A stretch of 64,000 nt of DNA from Minisyncoccota bacterium (lineage in GTDB: Bacteria; Patescibacteriota; Minisyncoccia; Phycocordibacterales; UBA2100): NCBI GenBank assembly GCA_043780835.1, contig JAYWCB010000005.1, forward strand, positions 125,945 through 189,944. Reading direction: 5' to 3'. Below, piece after piece: positions 13,931 through 59,033 of this stretch. A model generated the notes under the pieces. It was not told the DNA's origin. It worked only from the letters and a program-made list of their open reading frames with translations, and did no database searches. The translations under genes were made by a program, and so were the position numbers. The number at the start of each line of letters is the position of its first letter. Position 1 is the stretch's first letter.

Positions 13931-13963
13931 TATGGCAAATTACTCGCAAAGAATTCTTAAAAT

Positions 13964-16543: not shown

Positions 16544-16545
16544 TA

Positions 16546-16958
16546 TGGATACGTTTCTAACCCAAAAACAACAGATCGTGGTACGAGGACTTCTTGAAGA
16601 TTCCGGCGAAATTCTGATTACTGTAGACCAAAGATATGCACCATCATATTTAGAGTATTACAACCTACCGGGAGGAGTGGTTCCATTCGGTCGCGAACCT
16701 GCCGAAGTTCTTCAAGATATCTTTTTTGAACAAACGCATGTTCGCGTAAAGGTAGATGCACCGCTGCGCACCATAAACAGGATCCTTGATCGTGGTAGCA
16801 GCCAGATACTTGAGATCATTTACCGTGTGGAGAAACAGGAAATTCAGAGCGTTGCATCGCAAAAGTCGCAATGTCTTTGGGTACAGATTGATGAGAGAGG
16901 ATATTTCTTGTCCAGCTGTATTTCAGAGACGCTCAGTGACTTCAGAAAAGAAAAGTAA
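16546..16958 (+). CDS. NUDIX-fold-like protein with degenerate Nudix box
   Basis: Starts right after clpB stop; LPGGVVPFGREPAEVLQDIFFEQT resembles the Nudix box but lacks REx2EE glutamates; table ORF 16341.. is an over-extended start inside clpB. Confidence 0.4.
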
Positions 16959-16974
16959 GCCGAAATAGTATTCT

Positions 16975-17724: not shown

Positions 17725-17753
17725 CTTATAAATTAATAAATATAGATAAGAAT

Positions 17754-17981
17754 ATGAAAAAAAACGAAACAATGAACTCGCTAGCAAGCAAAACTGAAGC
17801 TGCATTCGACAAGGCTTTTATCGTGGCAATGACGGCGCACCACAACGAAGCAATTGCAATGGCTAAAATTGCGGAGAAGAAAAGTAAACGCAAGGAAATA
17901 CTAAAACTTGCAAAAAATATTATTACAGCTCAGTCGAAGGAAAATGCACAAATGAAAGTATGGAAATCTGAGTGGAAATAG
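17754..17981 (+). CDS. DUF305-like small protein (paralog of 2312..2536)
   Basis: FDKAFIVAMTAHHNEAIAMA...MKVWKSEWK; immediately upstream of multicopper oxidase. Confidence 0.55.
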   Translation: MKKNETMNSLASKTEAAFDKAFIVAMTAHHNEAIAMAKIAEKKSKRKEILKLAKNIITAQSKENAQMKVWKSEWK

Positions 17982-17991
17982 TCTGCTAAAG

Positions 17992-19677
17992 ATGGCGAGA
18001 AAAATGAAACGTAATATGAAAAACAAAGCAATGAAAATGAAAAAAGGAAATGTGACGAGGGCGCAGCTCATGGCGGTGACGGTGCTATCTCTCGCAGCGC
18101 TCACTATCGGCGTATTCATCTCTGGAATCTTTGGCAACTTCTCCATGCGTCCAGGTGACATGAGCGGCACTCAACGGGGTCCTTTTTCGCAATCTACTAC
18201 AGGTCTTAGAGAGGCAACCTCTTCTGAAGTGGTTGAGCTAAAAAATGGCTACACCTACAGTCTCACCGCATCTATCGTGAAAAAAGTAATCGGTGAGACA
18301 GCAGTAAAAATGCTCGCATATAACGGCATGATCCCGGGACCGCTGCTAAAGATTCCTCAAGGTGCGGAAATTACGGTGAATTTCAAAAACGAGACTGATG
18401 TTCCAACCACACTTCACTCTCACGGTATCCGCTTGGAAAATGCCAATGATGGTACGCCTCCGATAACGCAAAAGGAGGTACCGCCAGGCGGCTCTTTTAC
18501 GTACAAGATCAAATTCCCCGATGCTGGGATGTACTGGTACCATCCGCATGTACGCGAAGATTATGCACAAGAACTCGGCCTCTACGGAAATTATTTAGTG
18601 ACGCCGGCGAGCCCGAACTATTGGAATCCTGTCAATCGCGAAATGCCCCTCATTCTTGATGATATTTTAATTGAAAATGGTGCAATTGCCGCTTTCGATA
18701 GAAAAACAGCAGATCGCACGCTTATGGGCCGGTATGGAAATACCTTTCTAATCAATGGCGACGATCGCTACAGTCTGCAAGCAAAAACAGGAGAAGTGAT
18801 CCGCTTTTATGTCACGAACACTGCTAATGCCAGGCCATTTAACTTCGCTATATCGGGAGCAAAAATAAAACTCGTCGGAAGCGATAGTGGTGCATATGAA
18901 AAAGACCAGTGGATCGACGCCGTAACGCTGGGACCATCAGAGCGTGCCGTAGTAGAAGTACTATTCGATAAAGCTGGAACATATGCGATTCAAAACAAGA
19001 CACCGGATATAACGAATCAACTTGGCACCGTGATTGTCTCAGGAAGTCCGATCACCCCATCGTATGCACGCTCCTTTGCAACCCTTGCGACTCACATAGA
19101 TGTTGTTAAAAGCATCGACCACTTCCGAGCGGATTTCAGCAAACTGCCGGACAAGCAACTCAAGCTAACTGTGGACTTAAAGGGCGCTATGTCGAGCATG
19201 ATGAACAGCGGAAACAGCATGGCCGGGATGGATATGAGTGGAGGCTCGATGGCGATGGGGGCGCCAAAAGACGGCATCGAATGGGACGACACGAGCGGAG
19301 GTATGGGACAGATGAATCAGATGTCGAATGCAGATACCGTTGCGTGGAAAATAGTTGATACGGGAACTGGTAAGGAAAATATGAACATCGATTGGAACTT
19401 TAAAGTCGGTGACAAAGTAAAAATACGAATCACGAATGACCCGAACTCACCGCATCCGATGCAACACCCCATACACTTCCATGGCCAACGATTTTTGGTA
19501 CTTGATCGCAATGGTGTCGAACAAACGGATCTCGTATGGAAAGACACGGTACTTGTTCCTTCAGGTCAGTATGTCGATATTCTCCTTGATGCGTCCAACC
19601 CTGGCACATGGATGGCGCACTGTCACATCGCAGAGCACCTTGAGGCGGGCATGATGTTTAGCTTTACGGTCAAATAA
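17992..19677 (+). CDS. multicopper oxidase (CueO/laccase-like) with Met-rich segment
   Basis: HSHGIRL, WYHPH, HPIHFHG, HCHIAEHLEAGMM copper-site motifs; Met-rich MSSMMNSGNSMAGMDMSGGSMAMG insert; N-terminal signal/TM. Confidence 0.85.
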   Translation: MARKMKRNMKNKAMKMKKGNVTRAQLMAVTVLSLAALTIGVFISGIFGNFSMRPGDMSGTQRGPFSQSTTGLREATSSEVVELKNGYTYSLTASIVKKVIGETAVKMLAYNGMIPGPLLKIPQGAEITVNFKNETDVPTTLHSHGIRLENANDGTPPITQKEVPPGGSFTYKIKFPDAGMYWYHPHVREDYAQELGLYGNYLVTPASPNYWNPVNREMPLILDDILIENGAIAAFDRKTADRTLMGRYGNTFLINGDDRYSLQAKTGEVIRFYVTNTANARPFNFAISGAKIKLVGSDSGAYEKDQWIDAVTLGPSERAVVEVLFDKAGTYAIQNKTPDITNQLGTVIVSGSPITPSYARSFATLATHIDVVKSIDHFRADFSKLPDKQLKLTVDLKGAMSSMMNSGNSMAGMDMSGGSMAMGAPKDGIEWDDTSGGMGQMNQMSNADTVAWKIVDTGTGKENMNIDWNFKVGDKVKIRITNDPNSPHPMQHPIHFHGQRFLVLDRNGVEQTDLVWKDTVLVPSGQYVDILLDASNPGTWMAHCHIAEHLEAGMMFSFTVK

Positions 19678-19680
19678 TGT

Positions 19681-20328
19681 ATGTGTTTCTCTGCGACAGC
19701 AAGTTTCGTAGCTGGAGGGGCGCTCAGTGCGGCGGGAGTTTTGACGATTGCGCAGGTGAAGAAGAAATCCGAACTACCCTTTGCCAGTATTCCGCTTTTG
19801 TTCGGAATCCAGCAGGCTATTGAAGGAGTGGTGTGGGTTTCTTTTGGTTCCCCAATTTTGAATGCCATAGCCACGTACGGATTCTCTTTGTTTTCACATG
19901 TCCTCTGGCCGATACTTATTCCTGTTTCGGTTTTGTTGATGGAGACAGATGAGACTCGTCGGAAAATTCTGTGGGGCTTTTCAGGCATCGGCATCGCTGT
20001 CGGATTATATCTTCTGTATTTCATCGTCACCGAGCCGATTACATCGCAGATTGTAAATAACAGCATCGCGTATAATTCTCCTCATCTTTTCTTGTATCCG
20101 ATGCTTGCACTGTATCTGGCGGCTACATGTGTCAGCTGTTTCTTTTCCAGCCATAGATTTATAAAAGTATTCGGAGTTTTCGCACTCATATCTGCGTTTA
20201 TTGCAGCATGGTTTTTTAGTGAGACATTTCTATCCGTGTGGTGCTTCTTCGCAGCAATTCTGAGCGTACTAGTCTTCTGGCACATCAAAAGAAAATCTGT
20301 TGCCGTAAGGTTAATCAAAACAGGTTAG
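19681..20328 (+). CDS. hypothetical polytopic membrane protein
   Basis: Starts 4 nt after MCO stop; 6 predicted TM. Confidence 0.4.
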   Translation: MCFSATASFVAGGALSAAGVLTIAQVKKKSELPFASIPLLFGIQQAIEGVVWVSFGSPILNAIATYGFSLFSHVLWPILIPVSVLLMETDETRRKILWGFSGIGIAVGLYLLYFIVTEPITSQIVNNSIAYNSPHLFLYPMLALYLAATCVSCFFSSHRFIKVFGVFALISAFIAAWFFSETFLSVWCFFAAILSVLVFWHIKRKSVAVRLIKTG

Positions 20329-23454: not shown

Positions 23455-23645
23455 TAGTATACGCTCAACGTTTGGTTTCCATGGCTCTTATTCTAGTATA
23501 TTTGCCTGTTGGTAAGTCCCTTCGCAAAACCCTGAAATCTGCTAGGGTGCAAATTGATAGCCTAAAGTGCTATCATGTTCTTGCAGACAATTAAATAAAA
23601 GCCGACCTAACCCCTTTGGAATTTCCAGAGGATATGGTTGCAAAC

Positions 23646-23797
23646 CCCGCTAGAGATCAAAGGACTCCTCGTCAGAGTCACTCTAGCGGGTTATATCGGG
23701 AAACCGGTATAGGTGGGAGCCGAAAGGTTCTCATCGCGATGGCGAGGGGCCTTTTGATTACCTGAAGGTTCCCACCACTAAAATCCCGCTAGATTTT
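23646..23797 (+). promoter_or_regulatory. structured 5' leader with mutually exclusive helices (possible cis-regulatory RNA) upstream of 23798 gene
   Basis: CCCGCTAGAG (23646-55) and CCCGCTAGA (23785-93, followed by TTTT and the ATG) can both pair with CTCTAGCGGG (23681-90); internal GAAA-tetraloop hairpin and GGTGGGA..GGTTCCCACC helix. Confidence 0.3.
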
Positions 23798-24445: not shown

Positions 24446-24634
24446 ATGGCAATTCTCTCAAAACAAAGCGCTACAGAACTTCGCCGTATCATCAAGGAGG
24501 CTACAGGTCGCAACATTTCAGTCGGCGAAGCGTATGCCATCTGGCACTATCTTCTGAAACTACTACAGTTACTGTGGAGGATAGAAAAGAGACAAAAAAT
24601 CCAACCGCAATCAGATCAGTTGAGTCTTTTCTAG
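24446..24634 (+). CDS. small hypothetical ORF (62 aa) at edge of phage-derived segment
   Basis: ORF only; contains the ATAGAAAAGAG repeat. Confidence 0.2.
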   Translation: MAILSKQSATELRRIIKEATGRNISVGEAYAIWHYLLKLLQLLWRIEKRQKIQPQSDQLSLF

Positions 24635-26178
24635 AAAATACCAGGAATTCTCGAACGAACAGTAATTTCTGTATCGGGATCAATAATGTCATCCGGAAAC
24701 CGTCTCGGTGTACCGTACGATGTTGGACCACGCCAGGTGTCGCTACTACTGTATCCCATGAATTTTGTAAGATGAATGACGAGCATGGTGAGAGCGTCAC
24801 AGAGATCATCGTGATTCTCTAACCCAAAATTGACGGCTTGGTTAATGATCTCTTCGCATCCTCGATGGAATACTATCTGCCCATTTTGAATCAGTGCACC
24901 AATGCTCATAAGGCGCTGCTCCTTGCTTCCGTATATGTTGGGATAGAACTCAGATACCGGATAGCCTTGGTGATTGAGGTCTTGGAAGATATATACCTGC
25001 GCCTGCACTGCCTCTACAACGATTTGAGTTCTCAGGCCAGCAGCTCCCTTAGTCGATATTTCTTTTATCTTTTTAATAATATCTCCGAAGTCGAGTCGGT
25101 CGTTATAGTAGATGGGCGAGATATAAATCTTCGCCTTGTTGCCTGACCCATAGAGATGGCCATGCACGATCGCAGTAGGGTCAGTGCCTTCTTTGTTCTT
25201 CGTACCCGGATCAACGGCAGTCACAGACATCCGGTATCGGAGAACGGGATCATTTTTATCAGGGAGAACGTCGTAGTACGTAATCCAGTCGCGTTTGATG
25301 ATCTGGTCATCATCAGCGATCACTTGCAGCAGGTACTCGCGGAACCACGTCTTGTCATTACCAATGCGCTTACGTTCGGCTTCAATTTCTGCCATCGTCG
25401 GAAATTTACCTGGCCACATACTCTCGCCGTTGCGACCTATAAGCACATACTCTCGGTAGATGCCTGTAGTCATACCGTCGCCGATCTCTTGCTTGAGTCG
25501 CATGACAAGACAGTGTTCGTGTAAGACGTTCCCAATCACGATGAATCGTGTGCGTTTCGATCCGAGCGGCATAACCTCGCCTTTGAACCAGTTATATATC
25601 TTCTCTCGACCTTCTTTCGTACGTGCCGACTGAAGGTCCTCGGGGTCATCGATAATCACGAGATCTGGGCGATGTTGGAGATGCTTGATGCCTCGAATAG
25701 CCTCACTGACAGAGGCTACTGAGATACGTGCTCCAAGCTTAGTGAAGACTATGGTGGATGCGCCCCATGTGTCTGTTTCCTCCCGAAATGGCCCCAGCGT
25801 GCGCCGCAGAACCTCATTGTGCTCAAGAGCACCACGCAGGTTCATCATGTGCTGTTTTGCCTGGCTCTGGGTTTGAGCGACTATGAGCACGAACTTCTTT
25901 TGCTGGATACCCAAGATCGCCCACAGCACATACGAGAGTGTAAGCAGTGTACTTTTCGCACTGCCACGAAATGCGACAAGGCACAGTAGATTCCAGTCCG
26001 TCCGCTCGGTAAGTGCAAATATCTCATACTGGAACGGAGCTGTTTCGTACTCGACGTATTCTGCAAAGAAGATGTTGAAAAACCATAGGTGAGATCGTCG
26101 AGTCACGTAGCTTCGCACGAGTTTGTTCTTGCAGATCATTTCAAGAACGTCCTGCCGGAGTGTTTTATTGCTTTTCAT
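24631..26178 (-). CDS. phage terminase large subunit (Terminase_6-like ATPase + RNaseH-like nuclease)
   Basis: Deviant Walker A AFRGSAKST, Walker B LVIIDDPED, C-terminal nuclease Asp cluster (AVDPGTKNKEGTDPTAIV). Confidence 0.75.
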   Translation of the reverse strand: MKSNKTLRQDVLEMICKNKLVRSYVTRRSHLWFFNIFFAEYVEYETAPFQYEIFALTERTDWNLLCLVAFRGSAKSTLLTLSYVLWAILGIQQKKFVLIVAQTQSQAKQHMMNLRGALEHNEVLRRTLGPFREETDTWGASTIVFTKLGARISVASVSEAIRGIKHLQHRPDLVIIDDPEDLQSARTKEGREKIYNWFKGEVMPLGSKRTRFIVIGNVLHEHCLVMRLKQEIGDGMTTGIYREYVLIGRNGESMWPGKFPTMAEIEAERKRIGNDKTWFREYLLQVIADDDQIIKRDWITYYDVLPDKNDPVLRYRMSVTAVDPGTKNKEGTDPTAIVHGHLYGSGNKAKIYISPIYYNDRLDFGDIIKKIKEISTKGAAGLRTQIVVEAVQAQVYIFQDLNHQGYPVSEFYPNIYGSKEQRLMSIGALIQNGQIVFHRGCEEIINQAVNFGLENHDDLCDALTMLVIHLTKFMGYSSSDTWRGPTSYGTPRRFPDDIIDPDTEITVRSRIPGIF

Positions 26179-26614
26179 GGTCTTGTTTAAGTTGGCTTAG
26201 GCCTTCTTCCAAAACGAGCGATGAGAGCCGCAATGCTTCTTCTGCCGCAGCTTGCTCCTGTACGGTAAGGTCTTCGCGCGTATGGTGAATGTTTCCGCTT
26301 ATCTCCAGTTTCGATGAATACGCGGGGTGATGCGTCTTGAGCCACAGCGAAATGGCCGACATGTTTTTGTCTCGAATGGCAGATACTAAAAATCCTTCCG
26401 CGACATCATTTACTAGAAGTGACCCGTCGTAGATCGCTTCGTCCGCTGCCTTTGCGAATTCCGGATCTTCTTTGCGCCATCGATAATAGCTGGCGCGTCC
26501 GATGTTTGCTTTCGCGCATGCCATCTCGACGATAGGGGTGGACTTTAGATGTTCGAGTAGAGTTTGCTTGTCCCGGGCGACTCGTTTTTCAACTGCTGTT
26601 TGTTTCTGTTCCAT
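26165..26614 (-). CDS. terminase small-subunit-like HTH protein
   Basis: HTH segment IGRASYYRWRKEDPEFAKAADEAI typical of phage small terminase/HTH_23-like proteins; overlaps terL start by 14 nt. Confidence 0.5.
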   Translation of the reverse strand: MEQKQTAVEKRVARDKQTLLEHLKSTPIVEMACAKANIGRASYYRWRKEDPEFAKAADEAIYDGSLLVNDVAEGFLVSAIRDKNMSAISLWLKTHHPAYSSKLEISGNIHHTREDLTVQEQAAAEEALRLSSLVLEEGLSQLKQDHEKQ

Positions 26615-26615
26615 A

Positions 26616-27890
26616 TTATATTTTCTTCGCTTTGATACCCGTCAGTGCCTCGAAGCGGTTTTTGATGAGATCACAAAAGATCGGCTCTACCTCAACGAGA
26701 TATGCTGAGCGTTTGAGCTGTTCACAGGCCACCAATGTGCTTCCAGAGCCGCCGAACAAGTCCAATACAACATCGTTTACCTTTGAGCAGCGCTTCAGTG
26801 CCTTTTCGTGGAGCGTAGGTGGCTTTTCGGTTGGATGGGTGTATTGCTGTCCCGGCAGGCGTTTGACGAGCCAGATGTCGAGGAGGCTGAGAACATCTTC
26901 AATGAGGTCATTGCCGGTGCCGATTTCTTTATTCATTACTTCGGTAAGATTGTAATGATTCTTGGAAAGATAGGGCGATCCGCGAGTTCCATACACGCAT
27001 GGTTCGTACACCTTGTTGAATGCAACCTGAGGTACAACATTCTGATTATTTTTAATCCATAAACAGGTGCGCTTGTTCTCAATACCGAGCGAGTGATATA
27101 TGTCTTGAATCATTCCGACATAATTCTGGTCACACCAGTAGAAGTAGTGAGCGTCGCTCTTTGAAAAAGTAATAGCGTTTTGTATTGTCTTCTTTAGGAA
27201 TAGTTGGTATTCATCGAACGATTTATTGTCGTCTGTCTTGCCACCGTACTTTCCCTTAGTACCGACTCCCTTGTCGTAGCTGAGGTTTATATTAAAAGGT
27301 GGATCTGAATACGTGACATCCACCTTTGTATTGCCCAGAAGTTTTTTGAGAGACTCTGGATTAGTCGAGTCTGCGCAGATCAGACGGTGTCGCCCAAGCT
27401 GATACATTTCTCCTAGCTTCGTAACTGGTTTCTTTATCGCTGTGAGTGCCTCGTCCACGTCGAATGAGTCATCTTTTATTTCGAGTGCTTCATCCCAAAT
27501 GTTGTCGAGCTCCTCCGTGCTGAACCCGATGTCGGCAAGAAGGCTTGTATCGAACTCCCGTAGCTTCTCAATATCCCAGGCTCCGACATTTTTATTCAAT
27601 CGAATATTGAGTATCTTCTCTTTCTCAATATTAGGTATGTCGAGGAAGATCACAGGCACTTCTGTATACCCGAGGTCTTTTGCGATCTTGAGGCGAAAGT
27701 GACCCCCGATCACCGTGAACTTCCGCTTCGGTGCCTTGTTTACCAGAATCGGATCAACAAAACCATTCTGTGTGATGCTTTCTGTAAGTTGTGATATTGC
27801 CGAGGTATCCCACGTGCGCGGGTTATACGCAGCGGGCTTTAGAAGATTTATAGGTACGTACTCAATTTGGAGATTATGTAGTTTGGTCAT
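26616..27890 (-). CDS. ParB-like nuclease N-terminal domain fused to DNA N6-adenine/N4-cytosine methyltransferase
   Basis: N-terminal ParB/Srx motif (IIGGHFRLKIAKDLG), motif IV SDPPF then C-terminal motif I LDLFGGSGST (beta-class order). Confidence 0.75.
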   Translation of the reverse strand: MTKLHNLQIEYVPINLLKPAAYNPRTWDTSAISQLTESITQNGFVDPILVNKAPKRKFTVIGGHFRLKIAKDLGYTEVPVIFLDIPNIEKEKILNIRLNKNVGAWDIEKLREFDTSLLADIGFSTEELDNIWDEALEIKDDSFDVDEALTAIKKPVTKLGEMYQLGRHRLICADSTNPESLKKLLGNTKVDVTYSDPPFNINLSYDKGVGTKGKYGGKTDDNKSFDEYQLFLKKTIQNAITFSKSDAHYFYWCDQNYVGMIQDIYHSLGIENKRTCLWIKNNQNVVPQVAFNKVYEPCVYGTRGSPYLSKNHYNLTEVMNKEIGTGNDLIEDVLSLLDIWLVKRLPGQQYTHPTEKPPTLHEKALKRCSKVNDVVLDLFGGSGSTLVACEQLKRSAYLVEVEPIFCDLIKNRFEALTGIKAKKI

Positions 27891-28249
27891 GTCTCTTTAG
27901 CTATGTAGTAATAGAAAAGAGCCGAGTGATCTGGCTATTGCTTCCTGATGCGGAGCCTCATCAGTACTCTAATTCGACCTACTTATGATTGGTTAACTGC
28001 TAAACTCCTCGGGCTCTTCTCGATAGAAAAAGTCTAAACGAGCTGACTGTTTATATCCGTACGAAGACCGTACGAAGGGCGAGCTCTTATAAATAACTAT
28101 ATCGGAACGCACTTCAGGCGATAGGGTTCAAAATAAGGAACTGTGGATAACAACACGCTTGTAATTCCTTGTCAATCCTTGTGAACTGGCGCTTATCCCT
28201 TATAGCCAAGTACGGCCTCTTCGTATAAGTAGAGATATACTGCAACTTA

Positions 28250-28747
28250 ATGATTCGTGCGTGGTGGGTAATGTATTACTTTGTTCACTACGACGGTACT
28301 TCTGATGTCAGTGTGCCTCACTGGCATACGGACATAGAACGCGGGGCTTTGCTCCATCACTTGATCGTGCGAAAGTATTTCAGAGAGGATGTTGTAGATA
28401 CATTTGAACGTTGGTGGTACACATTTGTACTACGTCGATCAATCATACAAGAAAGTCCCGCAAGGAAGCGTAGGGTCGAAAAGAGATTTCAAGAAGTGAA
28501 TGATGCAATTGATAAAACAATTGACCTTAAATATATATTTCCAGTGCCCGGTCAAAGTACTCATACTCTTTCATACAGGGTACGACTCGATCATAATTTC
28601 AAAGGTCGCGAGTTCATAAAGCCACACTACTTCCTAAAAGCTTGTCTGCAAGAATTTGACCCGGTTCTGAGGTTCTTTTTAGGTGGTAGTGTCGGTGCGA
28701 TGATAGTCGCAGGTATCTGGTTGTATAATCACTTCAATGTCCGCTGA
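28250..28747 (+). CDS. hypothetical protein (165 aa)
   Basis: ORF only. Confidence 0.3.
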   Translation: MIRAWWVMYYFVHYDGTSDVSVPHWHTDIERGALLHHLIVRKYFREDVVDTFERWWYTFVLRRSIIQESPARKRRVEKRFQEVNDAIDKTIDLKYIFPVPGQSTHTLSYRVRLDHNFKGREFIKPHYFLKACLQEFDPVLRFFLGGSVGAMIVAGIWLYNHFNVR

Positions 28748-28941
28748 GAGGCTAAGATACGCGTAGGGACAAGATGGAAAGTAAGACAGATCAAAAGTAG
28801 CCCTTAAAGTAGCCCTTACTGTGTCTCATTTGTCTCATTAACAAAAGTCGACCCTGCTGTTGACTCCTCGGTAAACAACGGCAAAAATAGCCAGAAAACC
28901 CTTGTGGGGCTTGGAGGCCTGAGTACTAACTGCGGACGGCC

Positions 28942-28970
28942 CGCAATGACTCAAAAAACGCGCCGCAGGG
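28942..28970. terminator. bidirectional rho-independent terminator hairpin
   Basis: AAAAAACGCGCC-gcag-GGCGCTTTTTTG. Confidence 0.5.
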
Positions 28971-29317
28971 CGCTTTTTTGATTCATCATTGCGAGTAAGA
29001 GAGAGGGATTTGAAAGCGAGCCCTGGGGCCCCATCAGTAGATGGGGATGGGCGAGCAGGGCTGAGAGGAAAAACTTTGCGACGGCAAAGTTTTGAGCTCT
29101 TGGCCAAATCTCTCTCAAATAACGCCGAGTTGGGGTCGCACAAAATTGCAGCAGCGATTTATGAGTGACCAAATCCCTCTTCATATATCAAGTTCTTGAG
29201 TTGTCACTCCGGAAGCCGGAGCTGGAAAGTGAGCGGAAAATATCATTCAATCGGTAGATCAATGAATGAGTTGTTGTAATCGTGGAAGCATGGCACTGAT
29301 ATACTCAAGCAAACGCC

Positions 29318-30151
29318 ATGTTCCGTATTTTCCGTAAAACGAGCACATATATGCTCCTGTGCATCGCGATGCTCATAGGACTTTATGTTGTCTTTGCATT
29401 CATCACCCACCCGTCGCTTGACCGTAATTGGACACCTGATCAGAGTGTACTCGCGCGCGCAAAAATCAATGGATCGTTAGTCAATATAAAAAATATCCGA
29501 AACATTAACTATCGGAGTGTGTCTGACTACGACGTTCGCTACTATGACAAAACCTTTAATGTAAATGATATCGAATCTGCATGGTTCGTCGTTGAGCCGT
29601 TTTCAGGTCATGGATTTGGTGCGGCACATACGCTGGTTTCGTTCGGTTTTAAGGGTGGAGAGTATGTGGCGATTTCCGTGGAAATCCGCAAAGAAAAAGG
29701 GGAATCGTTTTCACCGATCTTGGGAGTGCTGCGTCAGTACGAAATCGTGTACGTGATAGCCGACGAGCGCGATGTCATAAAATTGCGAACCAATTACCGC
29801 AAAGACGATGTCTTTTTGTATCCGATACATACCACAAAGGAAAATATGCGTAAAATGTTCCTGTCGATGGTTACGAGGGCTAATACTCTTGCCACGTACC
29901 CCGAGTTTTATAACACGCTCACGAACACGTGTACGACAAACCTCGTCGCCCATGTAAATGAAATCGTGCCGGGACGAATTCCGTTTAGTTATAAAATTTT
30001 GATGCCTGCATATTCAGATGAACTAGCCGAGAAACTCGGTCTGATCGATTCAACGCTGCCGATCACCGCATTGCGCGCGCAGCACCTGATAAATGAGAAA
30101 GCATTGCGCTATGCTGATGACCCGCTTTTTTCTGAAAAGATTCGACAATAG
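29318..30151 (+). CDS. DUF4105-like membrane-anchored protein
   Basis: N-terminal TM; DRNWTPDQ...VEPFSGHGFGAAHTLVSFGF...AISVEIRKEKGESFSPILGVLRQYEIVYVIADERD pattern recalled for DUF4105/Lnb-N. Confidence 0.5.
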   Translation: MFRIFRKTSTYMLLCIAMLIGLYVVFAFITHPSLDRNWTPDQSVLARAKINGSLVNIKNIRNINYRSVSDYDVRYYDKTFNVNDIESAWFVVEPFSGHGFGAAHTLVSFGFKGGEYVAISVEIRKEKGESFSPILGVLRQYEIVYVIADERDVIKLRTNYRKDDVFLYPIHTTKENMRKMFLSMVTRANTLATYPEFYNTLTNTCTTNLVAHVNEIVPGRIPFSYKILMPAYSDELAEKLGLIDSTLPITALRAQHLINEKALRYADDPLFSEKIRQ

Positions 30152-30232
30152 TTTCGCCATTGCGATACAAGCAGTACCTGGCGACGCCATTTTTCATTGC
30201 GACTTTGCATATAGGCAGTACCATTCATATAT

Positions 30233-30625
30233 ATGACAATAGATCTCTGGTACCTCGCCTTCACGGCAATGCTCACCGCGACTCTTTGGATTCCATACAT
30301 CGTCTCACAGGTCATGGCCAATGGACCACTGAAGCCGGCCAATTATATAGACCCGACCCCGCGCCCTACCGCTCTCTGGGGCCAACGTGCACATCGGGCA
30401 TATTTGAATGCAATTGAAGTGTTCGCTCCGTTTGCGGCACTCGTATTAATTGCGCACATTACCGGCACGGCAAACGGTATGACTGCGCTGTGGTCAATGG
30501 TGTTCTTTTGGTCACGCGTGGTACACGCAGCGGTATATTATGCGGCCATTCCATATATTCGGACGCTCTCGTTTACGGTTGGGTTTATCGCCGTTGCAGG
30601 AATATTTTTGCAGGTAATTCGGTAG
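30233..30625 (+). CDS. MAPEG-family membrane protein
   Basis: 130 aa, 3-4 TM, RAHRAYLNAIEVFAPFAALVLIA motif. Confidence 0.6.
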   Translation: MTIDLWYLAFTAMLTATLWIPYIVSQVMANGPLKPANYIDPTPRPTALWGQRAHRAYLNAIEVFAPFAALVLIAHITGTANGMTALWSMVFFWSRVVHAAVYYAAIPYIRTLSFTVGFIAVAGIFLQVIR

Positions 30626-30743
30626 GCTACTCCGACGGTGAAACGGTTGACCGAGGCAACTCGGTGGGCCGCCATCTCTTCCAGCGGCAATTACGTATAA
30701 ATTTGAAACCACTGAACAGTTATACAGTTCGAACTCTAAGCTT

Positions 30744-31973
30744 TTATTGACCAGCTGACTGTTCTATAAATTTAGTTAACGAATCGTTCATTGTAGATAT
30801 TGACGGCTGTATGTGAGCCGTACCCCATTGCGTGAGTGTTACCGAATACAGGGAGTGTGTATCTTTTTCTGCCAGTACTGCTGAAACAGAGGCTGAGCCG
30901 TCTATATCTCTATAGGGTCTTACGGATTTGCAAATAGAAATCCCATAGATCCCTTCATTTTCCGGATAGGTTCCCGTCGACTCCTTAGTGGTCACGCGAC
31001 AATCATCGGTCACGGGATCGTATGCGAGCGCACAGCGACCCGCGTCCATCGCGCATGCGGCAAAGTCCCATTTTAAAAGCTGAATAACAGTGCTCTTGTC
31101 TTGGTTGTTCTCTTTATCGATTCGCCATGCCTTTACTATGTGAGGATTCTGATCCATTGCGTCATTGTCGGGAACAAGGAGATAACCAGTTGGAACAAAT
31201 ACAGGTAAATTTGTAGATACTTGCCCTTCGCGTTCGCGTAAACAGCTTGTACGCACCCGCCCCACAAAAAGGTCCGCGTATTGACCATCAATCCGCTTAC
31301 GTATTGCACACGTTTTTGAATCCAAAATTTCAGTATCAGAGTACGCAATACACTCTATTTTGTTCACTTCACTCACGCGTCTGCATATCGAAGGATCCTT
31401 TTTTAAAAATGCCAATTTAGAGTACAGGGCATCTTTTCGATATTCTTTTGTGGCTAGTTTCAATTGCAGTTCAATAAGCGCCGTGCTACCTGTCGCTTGC
31501 TCAATTGCATCGAACATTTCGTTCATAACGCTACTTCCGTTGAACAAAACAAACATTATGACCGGAATGATAAGCGCAGAAAGTCCTAAAAGAATGTCTT
31601 TAAATCCGGCAGCGCGCAACTGTAGCGGATCAATTTTATCTTTCACTACCCATCCTTTTGCGGCGGAATATTGTAATAAGGCAAGAATAAAAATAACAAC
31701 GGCAGATAGAATGTTGCAGAATACTAACAGCGGTACAATAAACAACGCAAAGCCGGCGGTAACAACGATCGCCACAAGTGACAGTCCGAAGAATATTATC
31801 TGGCTTACCGCGAGAATGCGAAATGCAAACGTCAAACGAGAATCGAGCACGCTACTTTTTTGAAATTGTTTCCGCAAAGCGCGCCATCCAAAAAAGCTGG
31901 ACAAAAGATACAAAATTATAGTTTCTATGCCTACGTAAAGGAATATTGGCGCAAATGACTTTAATATTTCCAT
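30744..31973 (-). CDS. hypothetical membrane protein with Cys-rich C-terminal extracytoplasmic domain
   Basis: 4-5 N-terminal TM then ~220-aa soluble domain with 10 Cys. Confidence 0.45.
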   Translation of the reverse strand: MEILKSFAPIFLYVGIETIILYLLSSFFGWRALRKQFQKSSVLDSRLTFAFRILAVSQIIFFGLSLVAIVVTAGFALFIVPLLVFCNILSAVVIFILALLQYSAAKGWVVKDKIDPLQLRAAGFKDILLGLSALIIPVIMFVLFNGSSVMNEMFDAIEQATGSTALIELQLKLATKEYRKDALYSKLAFLKKDPSICRRVSEVNKIECIAYSDTEILDSKTCAIRKRIDGQYADLFVGRVRTSCLREREGQVSTNLPVFVPTGYLLVPDNDAMDQNPHIVKAWRIDKENNQDKSTVIQLLKWDFAACAMDAGRCALAYDPVTDDCRVTTKESTGTYPENEGIYGISICKSVRPYRDIDGSASVSAVLAEKDTHSLYSVTLTQWGTAHIQPSISTMNDSLTKFIEQSAGQ

Positions 31974-39585: not shown

Positions 39586-39755
39586 CGTCTCTGTATGCCG
39601 TATGAAATTAATAATGAGAACAAGATTTTTTCAGTTTTGATATTCATAGGTGAAATGATTCGACGCATACAATGCCGTTTCGTGTGAACGGGCATAGTGT
39701 AAAGAGAATACCACGCGGTCGAGCGCTCGCCGTGTGGATAATTGTAAAGTCAGCT

Positions 39756-45353: not shown

Positions 45354-46019
45354 CTATGACTTAACATTTGTAATGGAGGAGTCGTTGTTGTATCGCACTG
45401 TGCCGGGAAGTATGCCTATTTTATCGAACGGAAAGAGTCGCAGTGCCGCGCGTCCGACAATATCTTGTCGTGGAAGCACGCCCCATGAGCGAGAATCAGC
45501 AGAGACCCGGCGATTATCACCCAGTACATAATACTGATCCGGACCGAGCGTTACTTTCATATCAGTAGGGCCACCAAGATTTTGCGGATCGAGATACGGC
45601 TCATTCAGTACGAAACCATTGGGATGAGCGGCGTTCACGATCGTGACCTCGGTACCTGAGAGGGAGATTGTTTCTCCGGGGAGCCCGATAACGCGTTTAA
45701 TGAGTGCCCGTGAGGTATCTTGCGGCAAATCAAGCACGATCACGTCGCCTCGCTGCGGTGTTTCGAATCCGTAGGATACGCGATCAATAATCAGGTAGTG
45801 ATAGTCGTAAAAGGTCGGAATCATCGACGCGCCCGATACGACATATGGAGCTGCAATGAAGAATCGAATGAAAAATGCGAGTGCGAGCGCGACGATTGTA
45901 TACACAATCAGAGATCGCGCAGATGAGCCGTCGTTTTTCGCGACAGGATGCGGTGCGCCTTCGTGGTGCGTCCCGTCCGAATGAGTGTGGAATGTATCGT
46001 TCATAGCAATACCATTCAC
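45354..46019 (-). CDS. lepB: signal peptidase I
   Basis: GASMIPT (Ser box), KRVIGLPGE (Lys box), GDNRRVSADSR. Confidence 0.8.
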   Translation of the reverse strand: MNGIAMNDTFHTHSDGTHHEGAPHPVAKNDGSSARSLIVYTIVALALAFFIRFFIAAPYVVSGASMIPTFYDYHYLIIDRVSYGFETPQRGDVIVLDLPQDTSRALIKRVIGLPGETISLSGTEVTIVNAAHPNGFVLNEPYLDPQNLGGPTDMKVTLGPDQYYVLGDNRRVSADSRSWGVLPRQDIVGRAALRLFPFDKIGILPGTVRYNNDSSITNVKS

Positions 46020-47317: not shown

Positions 47318-47345
47318 TCCGCATCAAGGCGTCGCCTTGATATTC
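47318..47345. repeat. REP-like palindrome (left end of RAYT element)
   Basis: GCATCAAGGCG-T-CGCCTTGATAT. Confidence 0.55.
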
Positions 47346-47995
47346 GAGGCATAGAACTCACGGGCTTCACTCAACATTGCCTCAGGGGCGCGCTGGGTTT
47401 CAATAGAAAATATATCTGCACCCAGCAGTTTTCTGACTGGATGTTTCAAATCAAGAAAAGCTCCATAGCTCGAATAGGGATACATCTGTAATGCCTTTGT
47501 AAGTTTGACCATATTTTCCACGCGGCCAACTTTCCATCCGGGCTCCGTTATTTCAGCTGGATTACAGTGAATATATTGGAGTACCCATTGGAAATATGTA
47601 TCGTCGTGGACATGACGAGATCGAAATGGTTTTACAAACAATCCACCAGTTCGCGAATGCTTGAGATTAAAATACATCGTGTATGCAGTGCCGAGTTTTT
47701 GCATAAATGTCGAAATTCCATTTTCAGTAACTTCTTTTAAAAGGAGATGGAAGTGGTTGGACATAAGACAAAAAGCACCGATAGAAACGAGTTGATCTCC
47801 GCGCTCAAGCGCAAAAATATCACGGAGAGATTTATTCCGTTGATTGCTGATGTGTACGCGTTTGGAACTGTTTGCTAAATAGATCAACGCCACAAAACGC
47901 TCGTAATCCTCTTTTGATTTAAATGTGTTGCGTTTGTCGATGCCTCGGCCATAACAGTGAAACCACTCGTCGACCGCAAAAGGATCCCGTTGCAT
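47324..47995 (-). CDS. IS200-like / REP-associated tyrosine (Y1, HUH) transposase
   Basis: FHCYGRGIDKRNTF, HUH motif SNHFHLLL, catalytic-Tyr region YTMYFN..QYIHCNPA. Confidence 0.75.
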   Translation of the reverse strand: MQRDPFAVDEWFHCYGRGIDKRNTFKSKEDYERFVALIYLANSSKRVHISNQRNKSLRDIFALERGDQLVSIGAFCLMSNHFHLLLKEVTENGISTFMQKLGTAYTMYFNLKHSRTGGLFVKPFRSRHVHDDTYFQWVLQYIHCNPAEITEPGWKVGRVENMVKLTKALQMYPYSSYGAFLDLKHPVRKLLGADIFSIETQRAPEAMLSEAREFYASNIKATP

Positions 47996-54887: not shown

Positions 54888-54973
54888 GTCATCCCCATCA
54901 ACTCCTGTAACTTGAGGATACCGTCATTTTGTGACGGTATACTTATACATAATGACGAATCCGTTCATCGCGT

Positions 54974-55609
54974 TTGAGATATGCGCGGGATGCCAGGAGG
55001 ATTCGTATTTTTGATATGACCCATACCAATACCAACGAGCCCGATGTCCGCTCTCATGGGGCGAGGACGGCTAATTTTGCGCATCCTTTGCGCAACGTCG
55101 CCGCTATGGAAATAGAACCTGGCATGATTGTTGCTGACTTTGGATCCGGTTCGGGTGCATACGTGCTCGCCATTGCTGAGCGGCTTGCGCACGCGGGTCA
55201 TGTGTACGCAATTGATGTGCAGCAAGATTTGCTTCGACGAATCAAGAATGACTCGCACAAACGCGGATACAAAAACGTGGAAATTGTGTGGTCCGATTTA
55301 GATCGGCCCTATGGTTCAAAACTTGCCGATGCGCACGTGGATCGCGTACTGATTTCCAATCTTCTTTTTCAATTGGACGATAAAAACGTGATTATGAGCG
55401 AAGCGTATCGAATTCTCAAACCGCACGGCCTGCTTGTAATCGTAGATTGGAGCGAATCATTTGGTGGACTCGGTCCGCAGAAAAAAAGCGTTGTGAACAA
55501 AGATGCGGCGAGTGTGCTTGTGCACAAGGCAGGGTTTGAATCGTTGCGCGATTTCGATGCCGGTGCGCACCATTACGGATTAATTGCGCTTAAACCCGCG
55601 CACGTATGA
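54974..55609 (+). CDS. class I SAM-dependent methyltransferase
   Basis: Motif I VADFGSGSGAY; start uncertain (Met1 or Met15). Confidence 0.65.
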   Translation: MRYARDARRIRIFDMTHTNTNEPDVRSHGARTANFAHPLRNVAAMEIEPGMIVADFGSGSGAYVLAIAERLAHAGHVYAIDVQQDLLRRIKNDSHKRGYKNVEIVWSDLDRPYGSKLADAHVDRVLISNLLFQLDDKNVIMSEAYRILKPHGLLVIVDWSESFGGLGPQKKSVVNKDAASVLVHKAGFESLRDFDAGAHHYGLIALKPAHV

Positions 55610-56940
55610 AAGGCGGCGTATCGATGTTTCAGGTCATCTTGCTCTGCGTATTCGGGGCATGCGCAATCGCGGGAGTGCTTATCTTTGCGCTCGCCGTTGG
55701 AAAAGGAAATGCAAACACCATAGGCAGTGTAGTGATTTGGGGGACACTTGATGAAAACACTTTTACCGATATTTTGCGCTCCGCGAGCGACGAGAACCCA
55801 TCTCTCTTGGGGGTCACGTACATTCAAAAAGATGGGGACTCCTACCTCTCGGATATCACCAATGCACTCGCGAGCGGAAAAGGTCCGGATCTTTTAATAC
55901 TGCGGCAAGACGACGCGCTGACGCAAGAATCGCGTCTGGTTAAAATTCCGTATACGGAACTCACCTTACAGGATTTTAAATCACGTTTTGTCGAAGCAGC
56001 ATCTCCATTTCTTACCACCGACGGTATTCTTGGAATTCCGATCCTCGTTGATCCACTGATATTGTATTGGAACAAAGATATGCTCAATACCGCGGGCTAC
56101 GCTGACGCGCCCCAGTACTGGGACGAAGTGCAGGACATGGCTCAAAAAATAACAAAACGCACGGAAAGCGGCGTCATCACGAAAGAGACCATTCCGTTCG
56201 GACAATACAAAAACGTAAATAACGCAAAAGAAATTCTCTCGATGCTCGTCATGCAGGCGGGCGGTGAGATTACAACGCGTGATTCGGACGGTGTATTACA
56301 GGCGGCACTCGCGCCATCGCAAGCTAATGTGGCTCAGGCATCGCTGGCGGCACTTCGTTTTTACACGGAATTCGCTGATCCGGCAAAGCCCGGCTACTCA
56401 TGGAATGCCTCACTCCCTGAGGCGCGCAAGGCATTTATTGCAGGGGACCTTGCGCTCTATGTCGGACTGGTCAGTGAGCGACCTCTGATTGCCGCCGCGA
56501 ATCCCAACCTCAATTTTGGCGTCGCGCGCGTTCCACAACGGCGAAGCGTACAGGCAGCGATTGATTCCGGATATACCTACGCTTTTGCGATTCCGCGCAC
56601 GAGTAAAAATGCGGGTGGCGCCAGAGCCGTCGCCTACTTACTTGCTGCACCCAATATTGCATTCTCCATCTCAAAGCGCTTTCAAATCCCAACTGCACGA
56701 ATAGACGTGATTAAACTCGCAACGACCACCGATTTGGGATTTTATAACAAACAGGCGATCCTCGTACGTTCATGGACTGATCCCAATCCTGCCCAGACCA
56801 GCGAAATTTTTCGAGCTATGATTGAAGACACGGTCTCCGGATCGTTCTTGCTCGGCGAAGCCGTGCAGCGTGCTGATCGGCAAATCGCAGCCCTCCTCGA
56901 GGCATATAACCAAGCTAAAAATCAAGAGCAAATACAATGA
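55606..56940 (+). CDS. membrane-anchored extracellular solute-binding-protein-like protein (family 1)
   Basis: N-terminal TM, ~400-aa periplasmic alpha/beta domain; no adjacent ABC permease/ATPase. Confidence 0.4.
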   Translation: MKGGVSMFQVILLCVFGACAIAGVLIFALAVGKGNANTIGSVVIWGTLDENTFTDILRSASDENPSLLGVTYIQKDGDSYLSDITNALASGKGPDLLILRQDDALTQESRLVKIPYTELTLQDFKSRFVEAASPFLTTDGILGIPILVDPLILYWNKDMLNTAGYADAPQYWDEVQDMAQKITKRTESGVITKETIPFGQYKNVNNAKEILSMLVMQAGGEITTRDSDGVLQAALAPSQANVAQASLAALRFYTEFADPAKPGYSWNASLPEARKAFIAGDLALYVGLVSERPLIAAANPNLNFGVARVPQRRSVQAAIDSGYTYAFAIPRTSKNAGGARAVAYLLAAPNIAFSISKRFQIPTARIDVIKLATTTDLGFYNKQAILVRSWTDPNPAQTSEIFRAMIEDTVSGSFLLGEAVQRADRQIAALLEAYNQAKNQEQIQ

Positions 56941-57308
56941 TCAACTTTCGACGATTTCTCTCATACGTACTCCCTGGGGTCGTACTTTGGTTCGCTGTCT
57001 TTGATGTCGCCTTTGCGGCATGCCCAGGCGGAGGCGGCGGTTTGTGCAATCCGCTGAGTGATAGCGTCAGTACCATTCCGCAGTTTATTTCCGGTGCGTT
57101 AAAGGTGATGGTGATGGTGGCGCTTCCGATCATTACACTGTTTATGGTGTATTCGGGTTTTCTTTTTGTGTTTGCGCAGGGGAATCAGGAACAGCTCGCA
57201 AAAGCAAAAACAAATTTCGTTTACGTGGTTATCGGCTCGATTTTGATTCTTGGCGCATGGGTCTTTGCCTCGCTCATTGGAGGCACTATTTCGCAATTGA
57301 CGGCTTAA
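56937..57308 (+). CDS. TrbC/VirB2-like pilin-family small membrane protein, paralog 1
   Basis: Signal peptide, Cys pair (CPGGGGGLCNPL), two TM helices. Confidence 0.4.
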   Translation: MINFRRFLSYVLPGVVLWFAVFDVAFAACPGGGGGLCNPLSDSVSTIPQFISGALKVMVMVALPIITLFMVYSGFLFVFAQGNQEQLAKAKTNFVYVVIGSILILGAWVFASLIGGTISQLTA

Positions 57309-57309
57309 T

Positions 57310-57687
57310 ATGAAACACGCTCTGCGAATTGCGCCATTCATAGTGCTTATGCTCCCGTTCGTAGCGCTTGCTGCTGTGCCGACAACATTGAAAGATCTTG
57401 TAGGATCAATAGTCAATCTCCTCAATCAAGCGACAACGGCGCTTGTTGCAACCGCCCTCGTCGCCTTTTTATACGGCGCGGCATACAATATGCTGAAAGC
57501 AGGCGAGCGTGGCTCGGGTGCGCTTCGACAATTCCTTGTGTGGGGCGTCATTATTCTCTTCGTCATGGTTTCGATTTGGGGAATTCTCAATGTGCTGCAG
57601 CAAACGTTATTTGGAGCCGGCGGTAGCGGCGCCTCGGGTGGTTCATCGTCGCGTTCATCTGACTCGTCAAACATTCAAATTAATTAA
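57310..57687 (+). CDS. pilin-like small membrane protein, paralog 2
   Basis: Signal peptide + 2 TM; VMVSIWGILNVLQQTLFG; Gly/Ser-rich tail. Confidence 0.4.
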   Translation: MKHALRIAPFIVLMLPFVALAAVPTTLKDLVGSIVNLLNQATTALVATALVAFLYGAAYNMLKAGERGSGALRQFLVWGVIILFVMVSIWGILNVLQQTLFGAGGSGASGGSSSRSSDSSNIQIN

Positions 57688-57694
57688 TGCACGT

Positions 57695-58021
57695 ATGGGA
57701 CTCACCACTGTCGTTGCGTTGTTCAATATCATCGTCGGATTGATGCTCGTTTTCTCGATACTACTTGTCGGCGGAGGACTGATGCAGTGGTATGTTCGTC
57801 TCGGGACCTATCCCACCTATCGCGACGAATCCATCGACATGATGCAGTGGGGAGTCGCCGTCTTGTTTGTGCTTACGGTGCTGCTTGGTATTGCGCAATT
57901 TGTGCAAACACACATGGCGGCGTCGATGTTTGCTATCGGCGCAGTTATCGCCGCCGTGGTTGTATATTTTGTCGCTACGACCCTGCTTGCAGGCGGAGGC
58001 CGCGAAGAAGAGGAGCATTAA
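57695..58021 (+). CDS. pilin-like small membrane protein, paralog 3
   Basis: Internal Met of table ORF 57509..58021; 2-3 TM; acidic REEEEH tail. Confidence 0.35.
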   Translation: MGLTTVVALFNIIVGLMLVFSILLVGGGLMQWYVRLGTYPTYRDESIDMMQWGVAVLFVLTVLLGIAQFVQTHMAASMFAIGAVIAAVVVYFVATTLLAGGGREEEEH

Positions 58022-58114
58022 AAGCTATCCACATTCGTGCTGTAGAGGCCTTGTACTCGGCCGCACAGAAGATACGATTGATGAACTAGTACTAAACGTC
58101 ATTTTCATTATTTT

Positions 58115-58498
58115 ATGCGCGCAAAGCTTACTCGGATTTCATTGCAACTCGGCACAACAGCAGCAACCATCGCGTTTGTGGGCCTACCATCTATCGTAGC
58201 GGCGCAGCAAACTGCGGCACAAGGACTTTTGGGTACGCTCGCGCTCGCCAACCGTATCCTCAATGGCATGGTCGGTCTCCTCATTCTCGTGGCGATCCTC
58301 GCGTTCTTCTGGGGCTTGGTCAAATACTTGTTCTCCGGCGGTGGTGAAGACAAGTCAGAGGGTCTCAAACTGATGTTCTACGGCGTTATCGCCATCTTCG
58401 TGATGGTTTCGATTTGGGGCATCATACGTCTGCTTCAGAACACGTTCGGCGTCACACAAAACACCTCAATCACGCCAGACGGCATTCGATCGTTCTAA
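58115..58498 (+). CDS. pilin-like small membrane protein, paralog 4
   Basis: Signal peptide + 2 TM; VMVSIWGIIRLLQNTFG. Confidence 0.4.
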   Translation: MRAKLTRISLQLGTTAATIAFVGLPSIVAAQQTAAQGLLGTLALANRILNGMVGLLILVAILAFFWGLVKYLFSGGGEDKSEGLKLMFYGVIAIFVMVSIWGIIRLLQNTFGVTQNTSITPDGIRSF

Positions 58499-58521
58499 GC
58501 TCGCGCTAATCTTGCGAGTGT

Positions 58522-58827
58522 ATGCAAACTGCATCCGTCATTGTGAATCGGCTGGTTGATCTCATCATCAACCCGCTGATTCTTTTGGTGTTTGCAGGGG
58601 GTTTCTTCTTCTTTATGTACGGACTGGTCAATTTTCTATGGAATTCGCGCGAAGGGGAAATCGCAACTGAGGGAAAACAACACATGCTGTGGGGAGTGGT
58701 GGGCATGTTCATTATGGTCTCTGTGTACGGGATCATTACCATCATTACCGGCACATTCGGGATCAATGGTCAGAATGCTACCGACACGAGCAATGCCGGG
58801 AGTTACAGCAACATTCAGTTTAAGTAA
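58522..58827 (+). CDS. pilin-like small membrane protein, paralog 5
   Basis: 2 TM; IMVSVYGIITIITGTFG. Confidence 0.4.
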   Translation: MQTASVIVNRLVDLIINPLILLVFAGGFFFFMYGLVNFLWNSREGEIATEGKQHMLWGVVGMFIMVSVYGIITIITGTFGINGQNATDTSNAGSYSNIQFK

Positions 58828-58989: not shown

Positions 58990-59030
58990 AAAAAGCAAAA
59001 ACCGACGCTGCGCGTCGGCCTCTGCTTTTT
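58990..59030. terminator. bidirectional terminator (pilin array on + / tRNA-Leu on -)
   Basis: CCGACGC-tgc-GCGTCGG flanked by A-run and T-run. Confidence 0.55.
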
Positions 59031-59033
59031 CTG

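Follow-up and report, generated by a model that had tools for sequence, protein, structure and literature searches.

A conserved tandem array of five VirB2/TrbC-type pilin-like genes next to a methyltransferase and a sugar-type solute-binding protein in a Patescibacteria genome

The window considered here is the whole stretch of 64,000 nucleotides from a Minisyncoccota bacterium (assembly GCA_043780835.1, contig JAYWCB010000005.1, positions 125,945 to 189,944 of the forward strand), and the element in question is a tandem array of five small genes, O1 to O5, related to the TrbC/VirB2 pilins of type IV secretion systems (T4SSs). The five open reading frames (ORFs) lie next to one another on the plus strand at 56937-58827: O1 (56937-57308, 123 aa), O2 (57310-57687, 125 aa), O3 (57695-58021, 108 aa from its ATG), O4 (58115-58498, 127 aa) and O5 (58522-58827, 101 aa). 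A mechanical list of ORFs starts O3 at a GTG at 57509, with a 180-nt overlap with O2; we prefer the 108-aa form that begins at the ATG at 57695, because this is the form that gene callers find in relatives. Hidden Markov models (HMMs) of the five groups found no further copies in the window. For comparison we used 85 related loci, five obtained by exact look-up and 80 from a set of one genome per species, and the homologs found belong to Candidatus Kaiserbacteria and other Paceibacterota (Patescibacteria, or candidate phyla radiation, CPR).

The five products share a hydrophobic hairpin and differ in what surrounds it. Hydropathy shows two hydrophobic helices behind an N-terminal signal-like segment in O1, O2 and O4, with predicted signal peptides ending at VAFA↓A in O1 (two-helix hairpin with a basic loop), at VALA↓A in O2 (hairpin with a Gly/Ser-rich tail) and at IVAA↓Q in O4 (hairpin with a tail of the form ..TF.V....P.G..). 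An AlphaFold2 (AF2) model of O4 likewise places a signal helix before the hairpin, with helices at residues 4-31, 38-74 and 80-111 and a predicted local distance difference test score (pLDDT) of 76-90 across the hairpin. From the AxA sites, the hydropathy and the AF2 model, the combination of a cleavable AxA leader, two helices and a short loop is present in O1, O2 and O4, and the VirB2/TraA-type leader is absent from O5, which is leaderless, and from O3, which is leaderless and has an extra transmembrane (TM) segment. O5 consists of two helices only and starts approximately where mature O4 begins; its leaderless state is robust, because fewer than 60 nt separate it from O4 in 89% of loci. O3 combines a hairpin, with a conserved RLGTWPxYR loop, with a third, C-terminal TM segment and an acidic EEEEH end, and is leaderless in the majority of relatives, 65% of loci having no space for a leader. 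The class III signal peptide G↓F(M)xxxE occurs in none of the five N-termini, where leaders are of AxA type or absent. The window copy of O1 contains 'FAAC', and O1 was considered as a lipoprotein; this was rejected since the Cys is not conserved among orthologs.

Between paralogs, BLASTP connects O4 with O5 (3e-16), O2 with O4 (1e-14), O2 with O5 (8e-13) and O3 with O4 (2e-7), and hhalign connects the O3 group with the O4 family at 98.1% probability (E 7.5e-14). Similarity of O1 to the other paralogs is marginal by BLASTP, their identity to O1 is 10-24% in a five-way alignment, and hhalign gave no significant match of O1 with the O4 family and no link between O1 and O3. We therefore distinguish two subfamilies, a TrbC-like O1 and a 'VMVSIWGI' subfamily of O2 to O5, within which O3 is a derivative member. 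The leaderless O3 and O5 were also considered as VirB3/PrgI-like proteins and rejected as such, being clear homologs of O4. An earlier note on this DNA, made from the letters alone, had described five consecutive small ORFs of 101-125 aa with a common signal-peptide/TM-loop-TM design and a conserved VMVSIWGI..L..T.FG second helix. Its five consecutive ORFs stand, with an actual range of 101-127 aa; its common design holds for O1, O2 and O4 and fails for O5 and, in most genomes, for O3, which are leaderless, O3 also having its additional TM segment; and its helix motif is common to O2, O4 and O5, degenerate in O3 and absent from O1.

O1 is joined to the other paralogs through a Pfam model only. 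PF18895 (T4SS_pilin, gathering cut-off 26.6 bits) matches the window copies of O1 and O4 above its cut-off, at 36.5 and 35.3 bits, and no other family ranks above it in any of the five ortholog groups when sets of 64 sequences per gene from the related loci are scanned member by member at E<=0.01 (64/64 for O1, 55/64 for O5, 18/64 for O3, 13/64 for O2). The TrbC/VirB2 model (PF04956, gathering cut-off 27.9 bits) matches 59 of the 64 O1 orthologs, with a best E of 8.7e-9, and the window O1 at 21.8 bits (E 2.3e-4), under its cut-off; beyond O1 it matches two of 64 O2 orthologs and leaves O2 to O5 essentially unmatched. NF045849 is the sole NCBIfam model matched, at 25.7 bits by O1 and 22 bits by O4 against a curated cut-off of 40 bits, and sequence profile searches of the PDB with the O4 and O1 families returned no pilin among their matches. 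Judged from these profile matches, O1 to O5 belong to the VirB2/TrbC superfamily (PF18895) as pilin-like proteins. The supposition of a CPR-type T4SS-pilin family was thus a sound one: PF18895 is found above its cut-off in two window copies, TrbC in most O1 orthologs, and the homologs are from Kaiserbacteria and Paceibacterota.

The array is an old and stable unit within its clade. Together with the window, the 85 loci make 86 sources, in which 66 arrays are non-identical. The exact order O1-O2-O3-O4-O5 is present in 63 of the 86 sources after start-codon trimming, and the remaining ones are cut by contig ends or carry one additional copy. Every position forms a 1:1 orthologous group, intact and of conserved length across the 66 non-identical arrays, and both the 1:1 orthology and the order are kept down to ~46% O4 identity. 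Mean pairwise identity among orthologs is 0.61 for O4, 0.52 for O1, 0.51 for O5, 0.43 for O2 and 0.37 for O3. In comparisons with seven relatives, the rate of nonsynonymous substitution (dN) is far below the synonymous rate (dS) in all five genes, with dN/dS values that are approximate because dS is saturated in all comparisons; the five genes are under purifying selection. O4 is the most conserved of the five, with a dN of 0.04-0.09 where the other four, compared with the same partners, have 0.16-0.31. Its tail has a dN of 0 in five comparisons with relatives, and P121 and G123 are invariant in an alignment of 45 sequences of the O4 family. The Gly/Ser-rich tail of O2 is the fastest part, with a dN of 0.46-1.06 and a dN/dS of ~0.7 where measurable. 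Tails that had been called diverged at first sight are indeed so between paralogs and among O2 orthologs, and not in O4. As a side observation, many automated records of metagenome-assembled genomes (MAGs) with the operon carry the title 'uncultured Candidatus Saccharibacteria bacterium' (L006, L007, L010, L012 and others), which is probably a labelling artefact introduced by the submission pipeline.

These data bear directly on two alternatives. One is that the ORFs could be chance hydrophobic frames or decayed remnants without function, and we give it practically no credence. The earlier note would have been overturned by random frames without conservation in relatives, or by a lack of pilin HMM matches, and neither of these two outcomes came about. 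It could draw on the sub-threshold Pfam match of O5 and on the missing ones of O2 and O3 in the window, and on the fact that no Shine-Dalgarno-like sequences were found ahead of the starts. However, five intact ORFs of conserved length in 66 non-identical arrays, dN far below dS, strong E-values between paralogs and ortholog groups that match PF18895 all speak for real pilin-like genes, and the conservation and selection data already refute the idea of chance ORFs.

The second alternative is that the array is a variation cassette, in which interchangeable major pilins with diversified exposed tails serve adaptation to host strains or evasion of recognition. Bartonella and Anaplasma loci with several VirB2 genes have been proposed to work in this way, and the same has been suggested for Patescibacteria (PMC12102498). 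The strong differences between the tails of the paralogs would fit such a cassette, as would the fast O2 tail and the extra O1-like or O4-like gene that follows O5 in a few relatives (L014, L016, L075, L083 and others; L028, L042, L081), from which we conclude that the five-gene core can occasionally gain members. Yet the same 1:1 groups recur in the same order in 66 distinct genomes across a wide range of O4 identity, purifying selection acts on every gene and the tail of O4 does not vary, which argues that the array is not a shuffling variation cassette. In addition, the paralogs differ in architecture, with a leader or none and with a third TM segment in O3, which points to distinct roles and against interchangeability. 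On balance we consider the variation cassette very unlikely.

Everywhere in the loci compared, the array comes after two genes with which it is tightly packed, and which in the window lie on the same strand. The first gene of the unit encodes a class I S-adenosylmethionine-dependent methyltransferase (MT; 54974..55609, plus strand; Pfam Methyltransf_31, _11 and _25), for which no NCBIfam model scored above its cut-off and the start of which is uncertain, the ORF list giving a TTG at 54974 and the gene caller a 197-aa form. The second encodes an N-terminally membrane-anchored solute-binding protein (SBP; 55606..56940, plus strand) of the sugar-type CUT1/MalE-like kind (SBP_bac_1 6.6e-19, SBP_bac_8), whose nearest solved relatives are sugar-binding proteins (4r9f MBP1, 2e-11). 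A search for homologs of the SBP returned members of the same clade only, with at least 49% identity among the 120 matches listed. In the window, the MT stop overlaps the SBP start by 4 nt and the SBP stop overlaps the O1 start (ATGA). Across loci, MT and SBP are spaced by -4 or -1 nt in 64% of the 61 loci and by at most 10 nt in 84%; for SBP and O1 the corresponding shares are 66% and 88% of 65 loci. O1 and O2 are separated by a median of 2 nt, and O3 and O4 by a median of 103.5 nt. MT, SBP, O1 and O2 are thus tightly translationally coupled, in about two thirds of loci. The SBP is found in every locus that extends upstream of the array; its loss in two loci (L059 and L077) was considered and rejected, since the gene is there, interrupted by runs of N. 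No ABC permease or ATPase gene was found near the SBP in the window or in the flanks.

The wide gap in this packing, the conserved O3-O4 spacer (58022..58114, plus strand), contains a DnaA-box-like motif, promoter-like hexamers and an A/T-rich leader. In the window, the DnaA-box-like CTATCCACA lies at 58025-58033, a -35-like TTGTAC at 58051-58056 and a -10-like TACGAT at 58073-58078. The 8-mer core TATCCACA occurs on the coding strand in the O3-O4 spacer of 56 of the 66 loci, with just 22 occurrences elsewhere in the other 923 kb, and in its 9-mer form it is the perfect DnaA-box consensus TTATCCACA in 32 loci and CTATCCACA in 18. The box together with a TTG-N19-23-TAnn[AT]T arrangement is present in 52 of the 66 loci. 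The putative O4 promoter went undetected in a generic sigma-70 scan and is proposed solely on cross-species conservation. We read the spacer as a putative internal promoter of O4-O5 with an upstream DnaA-box-like operator, and this suggests a DnaA-linked, cell-cycle-coupled control of these two genes. Other perfect TTATCCACA boxes occur in the window only at 28142-28150 (minus strand), ~250 nt upstream of the gene of a ParB-N6/N4 DNA methylase (26616-27890, minus strand), and at 39733-39741 (minus strand), in the interval that separates the ftsZ stop (39756) from a thioredoxin-reductase-like gene with its start at 39585 (minus strand).

The interpretation that we hold to be probable, with some reserve, is that O1 to O5 are T4SS-dependent pilin-like subunits with non-redundant roles. 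That their products form a pilus would follow from it as a presumption, and the roles that we propose below for individual subunits are offered with less confidence than this core claim. Several points weigh against it. A scan of the window for T4SS genes, which covered ORFs of at least 150 aa, found no VirB4, VirB6, PrgI/VirB3, VirB8, coupling protein or relaxase. The 85 related loci have no T4SS genes closer than 10 kb to the array, and their large flanking ORFs encode GyrA, IF-2, a class-V aminotransferase, ClpB, S1 and helicases. The check for virB4, virB6 and a prepilin peptidase proposed at the outset came back empty, both in the scanned window ORFs and, for T4SS genes, near the arrays of relatives. 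Three of the seven named Kaiserbacteria MAGs with the array are listed without VirB4, in assemblies that are incomplete, and the other four are listed with it (Table S1, PMC12102498); virB4 of Paceibacteria is usually found near dnaA and dnaN (PMC12102498). The Pfam evidence is uneven in the window copies, O5 reaching a sub-threshold 18 bits to PF18895 and O2 and O3 having no Pfam match. The gyrA-MT-SBP-array synteny could partly reflect a general conservation of gene order in the clade, and the putative major and minor subunit roles, like the putative role of the SBP, are read only from conservation and gene order. Lastly, a pilus has not been demonstrated in any Patescibacterium (PMC12857230).

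With regard to processing, it is of no consequence that no prepilin peptidase was found among the scanned window ORFs, since it is signal peptidase I that cleaves VirB2-type pilins. The window encodes such an enzyme at 45354-46019 (minus strand; Peptidase_S26, 8e-42), which likely processes the AxA leaders of O1, O2 and O4; TraF, the cyclase of RP4 TrbC, is also a member of the S26 family.

The closest described system is that of Southlakia epibionticum ML1, in which transposon sequencing (Tn-seq) showed an unbroken run of six PF18895 genes (SEML1_0014-0019) to be essential for growth as an epibiont (Wang et al. 2023, PMC10633639). Both arrays sit on a Patescibacterium chromosome and consist of tandem small PF18895 proteins (103-185 aa in Southlakia, some also matching PF04956) that are divergent paralogs with a common hairpin design. 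However, the six Southlakia genes lie inside a T4SS cluster, beside VirB4, PrgI and VirB6-like genes (PMC10633639), whereas the five genes here are far from T4SS genes and belong to one operon with the MT and SBP genes. The two organisms also differ, Southlakia belonging to the Saccharimonadia and the present one being Kaiserbacteria-like Paceibacteria, and the essentiality data come from Southlakia alone.

On a broader scale, Quinonero-Coronel et al. 2025 (PMC12102498) applied PF04956, PF18895 and CONJScan profiles to 3,035 Patescibacteria genomes. In 383 assemblies they found 441 'VirB2 arrays', which comprise 2-11 genes, average 25% identity within an array and have a suggested function in adaptation to different hosts. 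An array was defined there as at least two pilin genes in tandem or one gene apart, and the present locus, with five consecutive genes of PF18895/PF04956 type and low identity between members, is one by that definition. The catalogued arrays are most abundant in Microgenomatia and Saccharimonadia. In the parts of the text and supplements of PMC12102498 cited here, we did not find a fixed order of five orthogroups, a coupling with an SBP and MT, or a DnaA-box-like element described, and the excerpts of the Patescibacteria T4SS literature used here held no mention of solute-binding proteins or DnaA boxes in connection with pilins.

Compared with the TrbC/VirB2/TraA pilins of diderm systems (RP4, Agrobacterium, F), the present proteins are alike in size, in the long leader cut by signal peptidase I and in the two helices with a short charged loop, and the TrbC model recognises O1 orthologs. 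A single pilin gene beside virB3/virB4 is the rule in diderm systems, some of which also have cyclisation (TraF) or acetylation (TraX). Here, on the contrary, there are five paralogs in a monoderm-type cell, two of them leaderless, with no maturation enzyme identified and no detectable similarity to solved pilin sequences. The Mbov_0395 family (NF045849) of Mycoplasma integrative and conjugative elements is similar in being a small pilin-like protein of a monoderm T4SS of MPF-FATA type, the class to which Patescibacteria VirB4 is related (PMC12102498). It differs in being encoded by a single gene in a mobile element and not by a chromosomal five-gene operon, and O1 and O4 score below its 40-bit cut-off. 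By analogy only, the array can also be compared with type II secretion systems (T2SSs) and type IV pili (GspG with GspH-K), in which about five fixed and conserved subunits are found, one of them abundant and strongly conserved and the others specialised. That family is unrelated, and the class III signal peptide, the prepilin peptidase motif and the globular pilin head are absent here.

On one hand, then, the array is clearly related to T4SS pilins; on the other hand, its surroundings invite an explanation that dispenses with a T4SS, namely that the VirB2-like proteins are the membrane part of a T4SS-independent complex with the SBP, acting as an unconventional uptake or sensing module. The coupling of MT, SBP, O1 and O2 in about two thirds of loci, the constant presence of the SBP upstream and its lack of an ABC permease or ATPase partner would agree with such a complex, and so would the three TM segments of O3, the leaderless state of O3 and O5, the distance of the array from any T4SS gene and the MAGs listed without VirB4. 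These last, however, are incomplete assemblies, the operon itself has no energising component, and the homologous Southlakia array sits inside a T4SS cluster. The sequences are clearly related to TrbC/VirB2 pilins and PF18895, and we know of no precedent for VirB2-like proteins as transporter subunits. We therefore regard a T4SS-independent complex as unlikely.

Under the T4SS-dependent reading that we prefer, the proteins might work as follows. O1, O2 and O4 would be inserted through the Sec pathway and then cleaved by signal peptidase I at their AxA sites, and the leaderless O5 and O3 would be inserted directly into the membrane as hairpins, so that the subunits would sit in the membrane with their two ends facing outwards and the loop facing the cell interior. 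A T4SS of monoderm type, whose genes (VirB4, VirB6-like, PrgI/VirB3) would lie at other places in the genome, would then extract and polymerise them into a short pilus or a conduit towards the host cell. O4, with a putative promoter of its own, the strongest constraint and an invariant tail that would be exposed, is the candidate for the major subunit. O1, O2 and O5 may be low-abundance or initiating subunits with distinct exposed tails, and O3, with its three TM segments and an acidic tail predicted to be cytoplasmic, may be a membrane-retained base or assembly factor. In the most speculative step, the co-translated SBP would be placed at the same envelope site and bind a host-derived carbohydrate or a surface glycan. 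A bolder version, which we consider doubtful at best, is that in Kaiserbacteria-like Paceibacteria the pilins became detached from the T4SS cluster into an MT-SBP-pilin operon that encodes a nutrient-scavenging organelle, either a conduit assembled by a T4SS or a T4SS-independent complex, which would cooperate directly with the tethered SBP in drawing carbohydrates from a host, with its major subunit expressed from a DnaA-controlled promoter. If this were true, that promoter would couple the organelle's deployment to the start of replication and to the cell cycle.

At the borders of the operon, a perfect 9-bp inverted repeat, ATACCGTCA ... TGACGGTAT followed by TATACTTATACATAATG, lies in the gyrA-MT spacer at 54916-54942, and a similar hairpin also occurs in one of the relatives (L007); it could be the gyrA terminator or an operator of the operon. 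Downstream of O5, a GC-rich hairpin (seven pairs, six of them GC) followed by a T-rich tract at 59002..59018 (plus strand) is a possible terminator of the operon on a consensus match only, in a sequence where the count of terminator-like sites is no higher than the shuffle expectation. A convergent tRNA-Leu gene (59033-59115, minus strand) comes just after it.

The remainder of the window holds several further features. A copper and redox stress cluster at 11798-20328 encodes a heavy-metal P-type ATPase with HMBD, ClpB, DUF4396, a multicopper oxidase and DUF6629, which is a notable investment for a small-genome Patescibacterium. The Rfam LOOT RNA (RF03000) is found at 23604-23732 (plus strand) with 73 bits vs a gathering score of 46.4, flanked by the gene of a YibE/F-like membrane protein and an unannotated 198-aa ORF. 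The region 24631-31973 contains a ParB-DNA methylase fusion (26616-27890, minus strand), an Lnb_N-domain protein and two ORFs without a Pfam match (24631-26178, minus strand, 515 aa; 30744-31973, minus strand, 409 aa), and may be a mobile or defence-related island. In addition, an IS200-like Y1 transposase domain (PF01797, 1e-7) is present in a 223-aa ORF at 47324-47995 (minus strand).

Tandem arrays of VirB2-like pilins in Patescibacteria are already published, and the present locus is one member of them. The clade-wide architecture of five orthogroups, the translational coupling with MT and SBP and the DnaA-box-like promoter element are apparently new, in that we did not find them described; if none of these three leads holds, the locus is one more described array. 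The role of T4SSs in Patescibacteria has been called 'completely unknown' (PMC11665869), and a 2025 review, which counts no VirB2-like pilins in monoderm T4SSs other than those of Patescibacteria, speculates that the pilus is a conduit for uptake of molecules from the host (PMC12857230). In this setting, five ancient and separately conserved subunits of differing architecture favour a hetero-oligomer with O4 as its major subunit over a variation cassette. The co-translation with an orphan sugar-type SBP and a methyltransferase is a first gene-context hint that ties these pilins to nutrient capture, and the DnaA-box-like element before the candidate major pilin suggests that its expression may be coupled to the cell cycle.

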